The position numbers are program-made. Below are positions 1 to 39,000 of a DNA stretch of 64,000 nucleotides, one piece after another. The first letter of the stretch is position 1. Every line of letters begins with the position of its first letter. Location: assembly GCF_045037415.1 (NCBI RefSeq), contig NZ_CP173440.1; one strand, given 5' to 3'. This DNA is from Escherichia coli (GTDB taxonomy: Bacteria > Pseudomonadota > Gammaproteobacteria > Enterobacterales > Enterobacteriaceae).

Positions 1-3000
1 AATCCGTATCCAGAAAGTCAGAGGTGGCGTTCAGAGCTTCTTTAATGACCTGTCCATGGGTAACCGCCACTAACTTGCGCTCGTGATCGGCTATCTGTAA
101 TGCTTTGCCTCCATCAATGCTGTTGCCCTGGTCGTCTATCCCACTGGTTGTCTGACAGTCGTTATCGAGGACAGATACTGGCTCATCGGCATTAGCGGTG
201 CCGTGTTTTGCATTTTCCGCTAACGCGATAGCTGCCTGAACGGCGGGTATCATGGCAGTGGAATCTACGTTATCGGAAAATAAAATATCGGTTTCCATTT
301 CAACATTATCTTCGAGCCAGCGAAGAAGAATTTCTAAAGAATCCTGAATGTTCATATTTAGCTCCGGCCAAAAAAATAATAACAGGGGTGAAGACAGACA
401 TTCTAAATTATGAAGAATTCATGCCGCAGAACCAGGATACATTTTCAACTCAAAAAAGCAACCCTTTGCAATCAGGAAAAGTTAATTAATTGCAACCTGA
501 AAATTCACCACTTAAATAAACAACGGGGTAATATTATTGGAAAGAAACAGCAAGCCGGTTATTTTAAGGAGCTCTGCTATCATGCTTGTCATTATATTTT
601 AAGCCACTGTTTATGCGGCACTCACAATATGCATTCAAATATTCAGGCGTCAGATTGATTCCTGGAATTGATAAATGCATTTAAGCATTCCTGCATTCCC
701 CAGGATGCCTGCCACTTGCAAAGAAAAAGGTACTTTCTCTCAAGGTTCTCCATCTCTTGAAGATTTTCCGCTGAAAAATACGTCCATATATCATGCCAGC
801 ATACATCATAAGTAACCCCTGCGGGTGGTTGGTACGTCATGGCATCTGCACAGATAATGTCCACACGCTTATCATCTATAAAGGCCGGAGCGACAAGGTT
901 GATAACGTCTTGCTCTTTTTCAATAACGGTTACGTGGGTCACATCCTTTTTTTGCAAAATGACATGGAGAACCATCCCCAGTCCAAGCCCGTTGATAAGC
1001 ACGCGCCCCGTTGCCCGCTCAATAAATTCCATGCACGTGTTAATTTCCATCGGTGTATTGGACATGACGACTTCGCCATTATTTGAGAGACGACGATACT
1101 TACCAGGTGGAATGTATTCATTCTGATTGCCTGTTACGTCGGCCCTGAGAGAGAGCATATGCGCTTTCTCCTGAGAGATGGTGAATGTATCCAATGTCCA
1201 CGATCCGGATTTACCGTCCGTAACAGGGAGATCGTAAAAAAGAGTTCCCATTTTCAGTCCTGTAGTGTCGGAGCGTTACTTACCGGAAATTACCACAAAC
1301 CGGCTACTTTTGCAGGAATATCAGTCGCTGAAATGTGTCTTTTGCCGCCGCCACACAATGTAACGTTCAAGACACCCGCACATGATGGCCGTATCACGGG
1401 CTCCCTGAGCGGCCACGGCAGCTGACGTACGCCGTCCACCATTTCCTGTGAACTCGCGGGAGGATGCGTCCTGTAGCGTTGTCTTATCGCCATTCATCCG
1501 GTTCAGGAGCGCGTACAAATCGTCGAGGCTGAGGTGTTTCCAGCGAACGTCTGACAACCTGATTTCCTCCTGATTTGCTTTCTCATACCGTTCGTCACGG
1601 GTTAAAAGCTCACTTGGCCGGGCTTTCCTGAATGCTTGTGTTGCTTGTTCGACAGCACTTTCTTTACTGCTGGCAAAGAGATAATTTGCGCCGATGGAAT
1701 AACGGTATTTCCAGCGACTGCCGACCTTTCTGAGAAGGTCAAATTCAATCAACTCCTTTTCCGTTACCATGATTTAACCTTAATTAATGAATGATTTTGA
1801 CGATTCAAGAATAAGGTTTTCAATGTCACGTTTTGCTGCCTGACGTGCGCGATGTTTATCGGCACGCAGTACACTACTGTAGGCATTATTTTTACGGTAT
1901 CCCCTGGAACGACATAATCCACAGGTGCAACCAGTTACAGAATAAGACAAGCCATAAGGTTTCATACCTTTCCCTCTTTTTAAATATCCGCATCGCGATA
2001 AGTATATTAAATAAAACAGATAGTGCAAGTACCGTAATTAATATTAATCACACCCGGAGCGGCCGGTATAATTCATAATTTCTGAAGCATTATGTAGACC
2101 GGCCAGATAAAACCATCCTGAAAACAGTTTTCTTTTGATTGAAATGTTAGCGGTTAATTGGTCCATATTTTTTACTGGCAGGGAGGGAAACAGTCCAGCA
2201 TGCTCTTCGCTTTTACGAAGTCTATTCCGCCGGTGTGTGAATATGAAAGCGTGGTTCTCCATCTTCAGGGTCAGGCCAGTTCCGGGATTTGTTCACTTTC
2301 AGCTTTTCGATCATCGCCCGGGTAATCTGCTCGTCAGTGATACCGGCTCGGCGTTGGGCATCCCAGAGTAAAAATTGCATATCAGCCCATTCAGCATAGT
2401 TACCGGGCGCTTCTGCGGTTTCCAGCGCCTCGAGACTGAGATGCTTCAGCGGGCCAGTCGGGCCAACATCGCCGAATGTATCCTGAGACCACTCGGCGTG
2501 GTCACGGCGGATCTGGTCGCGTTCAGGAGATGGAGAGGCATAGAGATAGAGTGCTATATCAGAACCGTCTAATATGGGTTCAGGCCAGATTTCCCCAAAA
2601 CCATCTTCGCACTGAAGCTCAGTGCGGGATGTGTATACCACCGGCCTATTATTTTTCGCAAACCCGCGATGTTGCAGGAGTTCGCGGATAACGGCGGCAA
2701 TAACACCAGGCGCAGCCAAACGGCCAAACTCGCATTGATAATTTGGGTCGGGGTGACAAACCGATTCTTCCGCATACCAGAGCATGTTCGCCAGGTAATC
2801 ATCCTCAACTGGCGTAGAAGTTTCGGCCTGACGTCGTTTTTTTAACTCTCGGGCCATTATTGCTGCCTGATGGGGTGAAACCACTTCGCCAGCGATGATC
2901 CGGTCCAGTTCATCGACTGAAAAGGGATAATCATCCGGAAGAGTGTGGGTCTCTATATTGAGTAGGGCTTTGTTACTTTCGTGGCTCATAGTGTGCTCCA

Positions 3001-36000: not shown

Positions 36001-39000
36001 ATTTTATACGCCGGTATGCTGCATGTTAACTGATAAAAACTCTGGATGATTCTGAATGCTGTAAATGACTAAGGAATTTATAACCGCTTTGGTATGCATT
36101 TCCCGTAAGCTGGAAATAGCTTCCGGTGATGATAAGGGGTTGATGATCGTTATTTTATTGGTATCCTGGTGTGCATGAATGAAATATTCGCTTATACCTT
36201 GCCAATATTTTTTTAAACAGGGGTTCACGAATGAAAACTCAAAACACACCAGCCACTCACAGCGACATTCTTTTTACCCATATCGTGAATATGCTGGTGG
36301 ACCTTGCTAAACATGAAGGCACTCTAATGACGTTTGAAGGCCTTCTGCGGCACGGTATCGAGGTAGATGAAGAGATGATGGATAGCATGCTGGGGGTGAG
36401 TCAGGACTCAGCTGCTCAGTGCGTGGTTCAGCTAAGGGATTGTGGTGCCATAACGAGCCCTGCGGTATATGAGATGGTTACACACGTTGAACAACTGGCG
36501 ATGCGTTTAGCCCCAGACTGGTGGAAGAAAATCGTGCCATGGTCGGTTCAGCCGCTGCGGTACTACCAGGAAGAGGCTAGGGCAAAACGCGAGCGATTTA
36601 TTGTCTGTCAGAGGGAGCGCCAGTACCCCTTCAACGTCTACGTAACAGGTCAGGTAGAATATCCGGAAGATGACCCGATATATGGCACGTACGTTACAGA
36701 AGGTACGTTCCTGGTAGGTAAAGCGAAAACCATACATGATGCCCTGGAATGCGCAAAAGAAGCTTTTACGCGGGGTGAATGGATTGTCCTCGAAGAAGAA
36801 GGGCGGGATGAGTTCGTTGACCACCTGACAGGACGTGACCAGGGGCCGGTGAGTTTTTCCGAAAGGACTATAGAGATCCGCGATAGAGGTGACAGGCTGG
36901 TGTTAACAGGCAATGCCCGCACACTGGAGTGGCACCGCCATGTAACCAGCCCTGATGAGATCGAAAAGATAAAAGCACAGCAAAAAGACCTCTATCAGAA
37001 AGCAAGCTATGAGAGTGGCTGGGACAACTACGAGACTGCACGACAGCTGCGGCGGCAAGCTGAACAGTTATCTCTCGGTTTTGTTGAAGAATGCTGGCGT
37101 AACCATCCGGAAGTAATTCAGGCGGTAGAGAAGTTCGAGTATCCGGTGTTTATAGATGAGGAGATGGCTCTTTTTAATGCAGATCAGGATGCTGGTATTG
37201 ACTGATGGTCAGCTGGTGGCCGACGCGAACATTATGAACCGGAATCGCCCGGAACAGGTGTTGCTGGGCGGTTGGCTGTCTATGGCCATCACTTTAGCCC
37301 ATTTCTCCTGAATGCAAATTCTCCGGTACTGTGACACCGGCTGAGCCAAACGAAACGGACAATCAGGAAAAATATGCTGCTCGTTACTTGTGCCCGATCA
37401 AGCTACTGCTGGGTCAAAAACTCTGTGGCATATTCAACAGTGTCGAGAGAGGCACATCCCGACATGCCAAAAAACCGGCGATCATCGACACCGTTGATCC
37501 TGAATGGGACAAGGGTTCCAGAATAGCCTATCTGGACGTTTAGTTCTTCAATCACTATGTCCCGACGCTCCAGCTGCGGCTTAGAGAAAACACGCTCTCT
37601 GTTCACGAGTATGTCCTGAATGACGGCATCGGTTGCCTGACCAGCTGTAACCGTGGGACAGGCCTTGATATCAGCTCTGAGCGCTGCTTTCGACTCAAAA
37701 TAATACAGCGCGATAAGTCCGCACAGCAGCAACACAATGCCCGCCATACCCAAACCAACACCCTTCAGGAACCTGGACATACTACATCACCAATAGCATA
37801 TGGATGAGAACAAGAAAGAAGCCAGAAATTTGCCATAAACATTCTGTGTAATCCAGTCCAGAAAATGACAATAAACAGCAGCCGGCTCCCGGCAGGCTTC
37901 TGTCTTATCAGCAACCAGGAACGATGGGTTTATCATTTTCCGCTATCTGTCGCGCTGAATTCAAAATGCCTGGAGAAGGTTGAATGGTGAATTAGAGTAA
38001 AGGAAAAAAATATCCCGGAAAGGCAAAATCCAACAGTTAAGGGGATAGGGCACTACATGGCTACTGTAAAATGTTGTCTTAAACCCAAAAATAAGAGATT
38101 CGAGCATGAAGATAAATATAAAGGATGCCCCATCCAGGTCAGAAACCATAATCCGCAATATTGCTTACGCTGTAAGAGCAACGGCGATAATGACGGAATA
38201 TTATCTGCGCTCATTCCCGGTCGTGTTTTTTTATGTACTGATAGGATTTGCATTAGCATTTGATTCCTCGGAGGTACCTTTGACTACCCTGCTGCAACAA
38301 GGAATGTTAACTAACATTCTGACCTGTTCGGTTTTGGGTAACCTCCTCTGGCTGGGTGTTAATTTGGCATTAAGAGGGGACTCCGTTTTCAAAAACCTGT
38401 GAGCGGCTGATCAACGCTCTCTGTGCCAAAAGTTACTTTCAGAATGACTCGTCAAAAAAGGAATAAATCATGCGCAGCAAAATTAGCAAAACCTCGATCT
38501 CACTTATTTGTCTGATGCTGGTGGCCACCTCTGCGGAAGCAGGGTATAAATCCAATCGGTCTTCCTACAAATCATCCTTCCGCCCATCGACCATTACCAA
38601 GTCGTACAACTCTTCAACCAGAAGCCAGGCAAGCCGCACGGTTAACGATACGCCAGCACCGGCTCGCACCAAACCACTGACCACCAGCCAGAAAGCGATG
38701 ATTGCAGGTTATGGAGCCGCATTAACGGTCGGGGCAGTTTCCGCGTCCTCAGGGAATAAACCGTCAGAGAGCACCACCGGGAAGGTGGAGAACCAGGCTG
38801 GAGGGTATGCTGTTGTCAGTAGTCGACCTCAGGCCAAGGGAGATAACGAAGCCGCTGCTGCAGGCACTACGCCAAAGAAATCAGTGAGCGGGTCGGAGCT
38901 GGTGGCTAAGAAAGGGACTATACCTGCATCAAGTCCAACATCCGAAAAATCGTCGTCTCTCCCGTCGTCTCAGAGCATTCCAGGAAGTTCTGAGCGGGGC

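Follow-up and report, generated by a model that had tools for sequence, protein, structure and literature searches.

A recurrent asymmetric 12-mer on a pNDM-MAR-type megaplasmid as a candidate clade-specific operator

Does a 12-nucleotide sequence that recurs between the genes of a plasmid represent a regulatory site and, if so, does it belong to the same system as a palindrome to which it is sometimes fused? We addressed this question in a window of 64,000 nucleotides (the whole stretch of plasmid DNA that was analysed), where a pattern scan of both strands identified seven exact copies of CAATCAGGAAAA. Uniformly random sequence would hold 0.0076 exact copies per 64 kb, in agreement with the value of about 0.008 given in the original prediction. 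That prediction had listed six copies, all of which are real, although the one placed at 34909-34920 was off by one base (34910-34921) and a seventh at 25939-25950 had been missed. There are no one-mismatch copies of CAATCAGGAAAA in the window; the shuffled window gives 0.54 matches at one mismatch or fewer, and none of 100 shuffles reached seven. With the CRISPR repeats and the palindrome set aside, CAATCAGGAAAA is the only 12-mer with at least seven copies in the window. Whole plasmids were also scanned by pattern search, and the complete reference plasmid pEBSI041-1 (299.5 kb) carries eight exact 12-mers, seven of them within 26 kb (P ~3e-7 when calculated as if this 26-kb window, which was picked post hoc, had been specified beforehand). 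The copies are concentrated in an accessory segment that has the FIB-type replicon on one side and the MOBH transfer genes on the other, and six of the seven in the window fall between genes even though intergenic DNA makes up only 29% of the sequence (P=0.003). The motif is non-random, enriched, clustered and mostly intergenic.

When variants are included, the sites suggest an asymmetric box with a consensus of roughly GAAA-N2-3-(R)CAATCAG-RAAAA. A degenerate palindrome, AAAGTTAATTA, follows the first exact copy (469-480, plus strand), which precedes the -35 element of a putative DUF957 promoter by 7 nt and is inverted relative to the DUF957 gene; the 12-mer at this site is conserved in pC127_NDM1 and degenerate in pWLK-238550. 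This copy faces the opposite way from the others because positions 1-22.6 kb of the window are inverted with respect to the reference plasmids. A minus-strand copy at 5274-5285 is fused to a palindrome at 5265-5275, about 20 nt upstream of a promoter-like site (TGGTCA-16-GATAAT) of a 68-aa gene (4955-5161, minus), and the segment upstream of this gene is replaced in pC127_NDM1. Between the DUF6012 and DUF4942 genes there is a variant, GAAATGCAATCAGAAAAT (13406-13417, minus), whose orthologue in pWLK-238550 is the exact GAAACACAATCAGGAAAA. The shorter version that had been noticed near 19317 was also found, as CAATCAAAAGTAACTTT on the minus strand at 19306-19322, a short composite of CAATCA and AAAGTAACTTT close to the FIB-type replicon. 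The iterons of this replicon differ from it, being another repeat of 26 nt, and were rejected as a source of the box.

The single copy within a gene (25939-25950, plus) falls in the coding sequence of the type IV-A3 dinG-like helicase, where it supplies the codons N-Q-E-N. A dinG homologue of 72.6% identity reads CAATCAAAAGAA at this position, so the box is not conserved there and this copy is probably fortuitous coding sequence. A link to CRISPR was rejected, as no spacer contains the box and the dinG copy is not conserved. About 60 nt past the last CRISPR repeat on the plus strand lies the near copy CAATCAAGGAAA; it does run into a palindrome (29475-29485, composite 29466-29485) as originally described, although its true position is 29466-29477 rather than 29468-29479. 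Beyond this composite there is a further CAATCAGCAAAG at 29525-29536.

The remaining copies, all on the plus strand unless stated, surround a series of small units. The copy at 33375-33386 follows the umuC stop by 8 nt and precedes by 28 nt the -35 element of an Xre-RES promoter-like site (TTGCTC-17-TATAAT). The next exact copy (34910-34921) is fused to a palindrome at 34919-34929, giving a composite at 34910-34929 that is located 162 nt upstream of the divergent 86-aa gene C (34488-34748, minus); the fusions described earlier at this site and at 5274 are thus both as claimed. A copy at 35964-35975 is found 256 nt upstream of the 324-aa gene D, and its 3' part forms the left arm of a hairpin, CAGGAAAAT-N11-ATTTTCCTG, that extends to 35996. 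Downstream of gene D there is a degenerate inverted copy CATTCAGGAGAA (37303-37314, minus) that is better kept as TTCTGATTGCGATTTT in three other lineages, followed by an exact copy at 37360-37371 between the convergent genes D (stop at 37205) and E (37403-37780, minus), for which pWLK-238550 has CAATCAGAGGAAAAGTTACTTT. The copies after umuC, upstream of gene D and after gene D do stand alone between genes, as had been reported.

The composite sites raise the possibility that the protein that binds the palindrome AAAGTNACTTT also uses the box, either as an extension of its half-site or as an auxiliary one. Composites are present at 5274, 34910, 29466 and 19306 as well as at L004 22928 and L009 21214, and the palindrome is commonly extended by GG, an A-run and GT in that order (19 of 102 half-sites). 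However, the palindrome occurs in approximately 88 copies on the backbone and nearly always without CAATCA, which is absent from its general flank, and the stand-alone copies at 33375, 35964, 37360 and 25939 lack the invariant GT that follows the palindrome's A-run. A half-site test based on the invariant R-AAAGT arm and on co-occurrence with the palindrome was failed by the 12-mer on both counts. The IncHI1 plasmid R27 is equally enriched for the palindrome (15 in 50 kb) but contains no exact 12-mer in the 100 kb examined and no match with one mismatch or fewer in its syntenic region. Additionally, upstream of Ig-like gene 1 the diverged lineage pWLK-238550 retains CAATCAGAAAAA while the palindrome has been lost, and CAATCA stands anywhere between 6 and 11 nt from the palindrome centre. 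As judged from these patterns, the box is separate from and independent of the AAAGTNACTTT palindrome, and we consider the half-site explanation quite improbable. From the original reading there remains a selected motif, fused to the palindrome at several sites, for which a regulatory site is still the best reading; what is not supported is that it belongs to the palindrome's system as a second half-site or an auxiliary box.

The original prediction also offered a small repeated element as an alternative, with the 12-mer as its conserved edge. Local alignments between pairs of 150-nt flanks score 24-32, with the 12-mer alone accounting for 24 and only 0-4 additional bases matching, and no tandem or dispersed longer repeat was found around the copies in the window. 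The flanks are unrelated, and therefore the 12-mer is not the edge of a longer repeat. Absence from related plasmids, which would have spoken against the motif, is not what was observed: the box, or a variant with one base changed or a small indel, is present at matching intergenic positions in up to four diverged plasmid lineages, where the DNA surrounding it has diverged beyond alignment. For example, when the window lineage is compared with pWLK-238550 (protein D 58.5% identical), no run except CAATCAGGAAAAG is invariant in the intergenic stretch upstream of gene C. The 34910 box is the sole invariant run in four-lineage alignment A4, and in alignment A6, which combines sites from different loci, CAATCAGGAAAAG is again the one long run that does not vary. 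Exact or variant boxes at equal positions are found in the close relative pEcl8, in a Logan contig (protein D 51% identity) and in Klebsiella sp. GG_Kp146 (protein D 56%). The 33375 box, for instance, is at the equal position in pEcl8, in pWLK-238550 with a 1-nt insertion and in GG_Kp146 with one mismatch. Retention of the box at fixed intergenic positions within diverged surroundings argues for purifying selection on the 12-mer, which is most likely specific to the clade of pNDM-MAR-type IncHI1B/IncFIB Klebsiella/Raoultella megaplasmids that carry resistance and virulence genes.

This conservation bears on the view that the box has no present function, being either the remnant of an intergenic segment duplicated long ago or a hitch-hiking compositional accident. 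Coding sequence does contain an excess of loose matches, both in genes here (N-Q-E codons) and in R27, and the dinG copy evidently arose by chance. Such an origin is nevertheless very unlikely given exact conservation amid scrambled flanks in several lineages and at several loci, and given that the copies are clustered and intergenic (6/7).

The plasticity of the region could also indicate that the box is a cassette boundary or recombination site at the junctions of exchanged accessory modules. It occurs at almost every junction in the series umuC / Xre-RES + C / hok / D / E, the same slots hold Xre-RES, TacAT, Phd-Fic or no cassette depending on lineage, and gene E of pWLK-238550 lies between two direct copies of the 15-mer variant CAATCAGAGGAAAAG. 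The homology breakpoints, however, fall outside of the box (approximately 35 nt from it at 33375, 15-20 nt at 34910 and 85 nt at 5274) and are located elsewhere in close relatives, while in pEcl8 it is a duplicated piece of the RES 3' end (about 130 bp), not the box, that bounds the extra cassette. There is also no linked dedicated recombinase, and the sites do not have an inverted-repeat architecture. A boundary function is consequently rather improbable, and an att/attC/sfx-like site was rejected with rearrangement junctions 15-85 nt away or at other repeats. A group II intron homing site was also rejected, as the intron sits in the umuD LexA box, which is unrelated to the 12-mer.

Orientation provides a further constraint. 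Nine of the ten non-coding sites of the window lineage run along local transcription (two-sided sign test ~0.02), with the adjacent C, E and DUF957 genes running opposite; orientation relative to the nearest gene is mixed, being inverted for C, DUF957 and, in pWLK-238550, E. This co-orientation would suit an RNA-level element in which the transcribed box is a Shine-Dalgarno-like purine tract that acts as a ribosome-binding or standby site or as the target of a small RNA or CsrA-type protein. The box contains AGGA, all indel variants retain a Shine-Dalgarno-like core (AGGA, GGGA, GAGGA, AAGGA), and 0-3 nt past the box there is an ATG or GTG at 33375, 34910, 37360, 13406, L009 18166 and L009 19627. 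Against this, a spacing of 0-3 nt between a Shine-Dalgarno sequence and a start codon is too short, the copies at 469, 5274 and 35964 have no start codon, and the boxes beside C and E are antisense to those genes. The implied peptides are also not conserved; the frame after umuC differs between the window and pWLK-238550, and the 55-aa ORF at 37374 is shortened to 10 aa in pC127_NDM1. A ribosome-binding site of a conserved small ORF was rejected on the grounds of bad spacing or a missing start, with frames and lengths that differ between lineages. Fold z-scores at the copies are mostly near zero with no common structure, hok/sok is the only structured stretch in a sliding fold analysis, and Rfam matched only the group II intron and sok, with no match for the box. 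With no shared structure and no strong hairpin beside the copies, a structured RNA family and an Frpo/ssi-type ssDNA promoter were both rejected. An RNA-level role for the box is on balance unlikely.

Asymmetric, dispersed and mostly co-oriented sites could alternatively be a polar DNA signal for replication or transfer, such as a Ter-like site for a plasmid Tus or a signal that primes the transferred strand. Among the plasmid's genes is one for a divergent Tus that matches PF05472 over its full length (81.9 bits) and had no phmmer match among PDB sequences, where E. coli Tus is presumably represented. The plasmid has no canonical Ter core, with GTTGTAACKA (GTTGTAAC(K)A) in none of the loci examined. 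Moreover, the box shares its polarity with a one-sided Chi cluster (19 plus versus 1 minus in 28.4-45.5 kb). We nonetheless regard such a signal as highly improbable. No box adjoins or lies upstream of tus, to our knowledge the box does not resemble Ter, no Frpo/ssi-type ssDNA hairpins adjoin the copies, and the sites hold their positions beside promoters and genes. Where local transcription reverses, at L004 22928, the copy reverses with it instead of staying on one plasmid strand. The notion that the sites are positioned opposite an origin was dropped because record starts are not origins.

The reading that we tentatively favor, and to which we would give somewhat less than an even chance, is that the box is a clade-specific asymmetric operator of a putative DNA-binding protein, located upstream of promoters or between cassette-like units. 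Promoter-like hexamers place the box at approximately -48 for DUF957, -60 for Ig-like gene 1, -61 for the 68-aa gene, -70 for Xre-RES and -85 to -95 for gene C, these positions coming from consensus scans that yield at least as many sites in shuffled sequence. The distance is not constant (about -195 for gene D and -230 for DUF4942), and there is no promoter at the 37360 copy between its convergent genes. Protein binding to the box and an effect on transcription are what we infer from sequence. A putative sequence-specific protein would bind one asymmetric box and may tune the small units that the box separates (umuDC, Xre-RES, gene C, hok/sok, gene D, gene E, DUF957, DUF4942 and the Ig-like genes), either from promoter-upstream positions or as an orientation-dependent, "stoperator-like" roadblock between units. 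The IncHI-wide palindromic operator AAAGTNACTTT can share bases with the A-run of the box, so that at composite sites binding of the two proteins would be competitive or cooperative. Some sites have 1-2 nt inserted between CAATCAG and GAAAA, which is unusual for a rigid protein site and counts against an operator. No candidate binder emerged among the neighbouring proteins, which have no significant Pfam domain (a 202-aa protein gave sub-threshold matches only), and an AlphaFold model of protein D (pLDDT 79.7) has no significant fold match. A contig search with protein D found only remote matches in Burkholderiaceae/Pseudomonadales. We know of no fit to the box among the IHF, FNR, marbox, CsrA and sigma-54 consensus sequences when these are compared by eye, and a literature search on the box sequences and on pNDM-MAR regulation found nothing relevant.

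In Klebsiella the pNDM-MAR-type IncHI1B/FIB backbone is a vehicle of NDM-1 and of hypervirulence loci, and control of its accessory and establishment genes appears undescribed in the literature searched. The box offers a concrete handle on a regulator that would act on toxin-antitoxin and SOS-mutagenesis genes and on small genes of unknown function and, together with the IncHI-wide palindrome and a TATCCTGGT promoter family found here, outlines a regulatory grammar of these plasmids. If it is only a binding site of modest effect, then this is ordinary plasmid biology. A bolder and doubtful proposal is that the box and its putative clade-specific protein may be a plasmid counterpart of phage stoperators, in which an asymmetric operator set between cassettes would insulate and silence the anti-defence/establishment island of NDM and hypervirulence megaplasmids, atop an ancient IncHI-wide palindromic operator network.

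Several known systems share features with the box. Like Tus-Ter, it is composed of asymmetric, dispersed and oriented sites on a plasmid that has a Tus-family gene, but it differs in having no sequence resemblance to the Ter core, no canonical Ter, no two opposed groups and an orientation that mostly follows local transcription. The PeSLs of T4-type phages, reportedly mobile regulatory cassettes composed of a promoter plus a stem-loop, are also repeated regulatory sequences beside small ORFs of unknown function in a plastic region with shuffled modules; they are longer and have homologous flanks, whereas copies of the box share only 12-18 nt. The KorB operators (OB) of the IncP-1 plasmid RK2 are palindromic, global plasmid operators. 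The box is similar to these in that backbone-wide identical short sites occur at variable promoter distances and are sometimes paired with the site of a second regulator, but the 12-mer is asymmetric and confined to one plasmid segment, and OB resembles AAAGTNACTTT more. Finally, mycobacteriophage L5 and related phages are said to have stoperators, 13-bp asymmetric sites for the gp71 repressor. The box has fewer copies (6-11) and a repressor that is only hypothetical, one copy and some gene-relative orientations break polarity, and it resides on a conjugative plasmid rather than in a temperate phage. Stoperators are oriented with transcription; nine of the ten non-coding sites of the box point along the locally dominant direction of transcription, and the adjacent genes C, E and DUF957 run the other way. 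As with stoperators, its asymmetric, near-identical sites are found in intergenic DNA, and both are short, near-exact and clade-specific boxes in several to dozens of copies, most of which occupy short gaps between genes, with or without a promoter.

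The 12-mer CAATCAGGAAAA, which we refer to as the box, is present in the window as seven exact copies (469+, 5274-, 25939+, 33375+, 34910+, 35964+ and 37360+), against an expectation of 0.0076 copies in 64 kb. None of 100 shuffles gave seven matches even at one mismatch or fewer, no one-mismatch copies of the 12-mer occur in the window, and the only 12-mers reaching at least seven copies there are the box, the CRISPR repeats and the palindrome AAAGTNACTTT (30 copies). The recurrence described in the original prediction is real, with the corrections that the copy at 25939 had been missed, that the copy at 34910 had been placed one base off and that a near copy, which is indeed present, lies at 29466-29477, two bases from where it had been put. 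Six of the seven copies are intergenic, as compared to 29% of the sequence (P = 0.003). The copy at 25939 is located inside dinG and is absent from a dinG of 72.6% identity; since it is not conserved, we treat it as probably fortuitous coding sequence. Loose in-gene matches, which often spell N-Q-E codons, are over-represented even in R27 and should not be counted as sites. The whole 299.5-kb reference plasmid pEBSI041-1 contains eight copies, seven of which are those of the window, all inside 26 kb, with the eighth in a second, identical copy of a dinG segment.

Large Klebsiella pneumoniae plasmids, for example pEBSI041-1 and phvKpST395_NDM1_1657, match the window at 100% identity and are typed as IncFIB/IncHI1B with a MOBH relaxase and MPF_F (pNDM-MAR type); approximately 640-1,500 PLSDB records matched the region. 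Positions 1-22634 are inverted relative to most relatives (pEBSI041-1, phvKpST395_NDM1_1657, pC127_NDM1 and pWLK-238550), likely because two inverted copies of IS4321, one of them at 21366-22370, recombined, and this inversion accounts for two 12-mer copies being on unexpected strands. The common arrangement has a 45-kb stretch in which all small genes and the 5274 copy face the same way. The window also contains a FIB-type rep gene (20234-21352) and a type IV-A3 CRISPR-Cas locus (22929-29405) comprised of cas/dinG genes (22929-28397; Cas6-like, DinG helicase and csf genes) and an array (28463-29405) with sixteen 29-nt repeats, the repeats occurring as two variants that include CCCCGTGTGCGGGG and CCCCGCATGCGGGG. 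Additionally, there are umuDC, a Xre-RES toxin-antitoxin pair, hok/sok, several ORFs without known domains, and MOBH transfer genes with mobI and a presumed oriT near 51.3-51.9 kb. A group II intron (29737-31650; Rfam RF02005; ltrA at 30101-31588), which has a second copy elsewhere on the plasmid, is inserted directly after TACTGGTTATATATACAGT in a LexA-box-like site upstream of umuD, so that umuDC is probably uncoupled from its SOS operator. One of four copies of a 13-mer, TATGCCACAGGCA / TGCCTGTGGCATA (16310, 30962, 40972 and 61608), is within the intron.

Pairwise alignment of the 150-nt flanks of all copies, taken in motif orientation, gave scores of 24-32, of which the 12-mer by itself contributes 24, and beyond it the copies have no more in common than GAAA-N2-3 upstream and a purine ahead of the 12-mer. 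Such unrelated flanks refute the earlier suggestion that the 12-mer is the conserved edge of a repeated element. There is no common RNA fold among the copies, the only Rfam matches in the window are the intron and sok, and no long hairpins of the ssDNA type occur beside the copies, with hok/sok alone being strongly structured. Classification of the box as a repeat-element edge or as a structured RNA was tried and rejected.

The main positive result, which comes from sequence comparison, is the conservation of the box in relatives. The 87-95% backbone variant pC127_NDM1 lacks only one of the seven copies, that at 5274, where the segment is replaced, while pEcl8 (pLVPK-like and non-conjugative) has kept the copies after umuC and upstream of gene C (an 86-aa gene at 34488-34748, minus strand) and carries CAATCAGAAAAAGAAATATG in an extra cassette. 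The Raoultella plasmid pWLK-238550 is much more diverged, with 58.5% identity in protein D (324 aa, encoded at 36231-37205). Upstream of gene C it has an exact copy in intergenic DNA that is otherwise unalignable, and CAATCAGGAAAAG is the sole invariant run in our alignment of this region. Its DUF6012-DUF4942 intergenic region contains an exact GAAACACAATCAGGAAAA in place of the window's GAAATGCAATCAGAAAAT, its post-umuC site reads CAATCAGGGAAAATG, and its gene E (37403-37780, minus strand, in the window) is flanked by two CAATCAGAGGAAAAG copies, of which one is joined to the palindrome. In two further diverged lineages, a Logan contig (D 51% identical) and Klebsiella sp. GG_Kp146 (D 56%), GCAATCAGAAAAA(G)AAATATCC is present upstream of divergent minus-strand genes and an inverted TTCTGATTGCGATTTT lies downstream of D, where the window has only a degenerate copy (37303-37314); GG_Kp146 also has ACAATCAGGAAAG 8 nt past umuC. 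A further conserved site is CAATCAGAAAAA, present in both pEBSI041-1 and pWLK-238550 in another part of the backbone, ahead of the first Ig-like gene; pWLK-238550 has kept the box there but lost the adjoining palindrome. The box is real, selected, clade-specific and intergenic, and that it is a functionless relic is quite improbable.

The interval between umuC and gene D (33368-36230 in the window; 18160-19990, 4651-8000 and 7700-10520 in the further loci L009, L023 and L015, respectively) is a toxin-antitoxin hot spot. It holds Xre-RES in the window, TacA-TacT plus Phd-Fic in GG_Kp146, hok only in pWLK-238550, and in pEcl8 Xre-RES plus the extra cassette, which is bounded by a ~130-bp duplication of the RES 3' end. 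Slots between boxes that hold different cassettes by lineage could be expected if the box were a recombination site at cassette boundaries, but the breakpoints fall outside the box and this explanation is improbable.

The palindrome has the core R-AAAGT-N-ACTTT-Y, often with G or GG ahead of the A-run, which allows the 12-mer, through its GGAAAA end, to merge with the palindrome, as occurs at 5274, 34910, 29466, 19306, L004 22928 and L009 21214. The ~88 palindromes are spread over the entire backbone, and acquired virulence/resistance regions have hardly any. In the window the distance from a palindrome to a downstream start codon is often 102-114 nt (5265, 6666, 11469, 13234 and 51440), and one palindrome arises within signal-peptide coding sequence (MKKLLL at 55382). 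The proposal that the box is a second box, or auxiliary half-site, of the same system found no support and is unlikely to be correct, since the general palindrome flank does not include CAATCA, the invariant GT is missing from stand-alone 12-mers, CAATCA and the palindrome centre are separated by anywhere from 6 to 11 nt, and the two elements are distributed differently in R27. The first 50 kb of this IncHI1 plasmid contain 15 palindromes versus 0.15 expected, an enrichment like that observed here, whereas no exact 12-mer is present in the 100 kb of R27 examined and no match at one mismatch or fewer occurs in its syntenic DUF957-hok-S49 region. Thus, the palindrome is old and IncHI-wide, the 12-mer being more recent and clade-specific; the half-site assignment was rejected.

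Promoters are defined here as consensus hexamer matches only, which scans find no more often than in shuffled sequence. Relative to these promoter-like hexamers the box is positioned at approximately -48 for DUF957, -60 for Ig-like gene 1, -61 for a 68-aa gene, -70 for Xre-RES (TTGCTC-17-TATAAT), -85 to -95 for gene C (TTGACG-16-TATTAT), -195 for gene D and -230 for DUF4942, with the 37360 copy located between convergent genes D and E. In the window lineage, 9 of 10 non-coding sites follow the locally dominant transcription direction, among them the L004 site, which flips along with its genes; the box is antisense to its nearest genes C, E and DUF957. An RNA-level Shine-Dalgarno-like element would be consistent with the AGGA/GAGGA core found in every indel variant and with a start codon often coming after it, but the ORFs show no conservation and the start codons lie too close, making this reading unlikely. 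A separate promoter-like family that we newly noticed, GGGTTG(A/C)T-N16-TATCCTGG(T), precedes DUF957, DUF4942, gene D and further small genes by 46-93 nt and includes the DUF957 promoter. Its -35 hexamer is TTGATG or TTGCAT and its -10 hexamer is the unusual TATCCT. Members are located at 431-464(-), 13177-13210(-), 36137-36170(+), 10993-11001(-) and L014 2950-2982, and the family is kept in pWLK-238550 and a third lineage (L020 1739-1774).

Chi sites (GCTGGTGG) number 30 in the window versus 3.75 expected. Between 28406 and 45451 the plus strand carries 19 and the minus strand 1, an orientation suited to acting on RecBCD that enters from the oriT/mobI side. Several of the sites are kept in diverged relatives. 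Outside the window, pEBSI041-1 encodes a full-length, divergent Tus-family protein (L003 8484-9443; PF05472, 81.9 bits) that gave no phmmer match to PDB sequences. The box could be a polar replication signal, such as a Ter site for this Tus, but we regard this as very unlikely; the canonical Ter core GTTGTAACKA is absent across the whole plasmid. The box was rejected as a Ter site, as a ribosome binding site of conserved ORFs and as a recombination site.

What may be the function of the box? A short, asymmetric, near-invariant, intergenic and clade-specific sequence that outlives decaying flanks, that is mostly co-oriented with transcription and that is in places promoter-proximal and in others between units suggests, tentatively, the recognition site of a sequence-specific DNA-binding protein that would act on transcription. 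No binder candidate can be named from the neighbouring proteins, which have no significant Pfam domains, or from protein D, which is flanked by boxes in every box-bearing lineage. A model of protein D built with 22 homologues is confident (pLDDT 79.7, pTM 0.66), and the PDB contains no structure that matches it significantly. Some annotations name D a "Hok/Gef family protein", apparently a mislabel from the neighbouring gene, and homologues down to 37-40% identity are found in Pantoea and on F-like plasmid contigs beside traM. A search of a literature library returned no paper on the 12-mer, the palindrome or regulation of this backbone. The box is best filed, in general terms, among the cis-regulatory operator boxes of plasmids. 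The closest known pattern is the "stoperator" arrangement reported for mycobacteriophage L5, and stoperator-like insulation on a clinical megaplasmid would, if true, be of greater interest.
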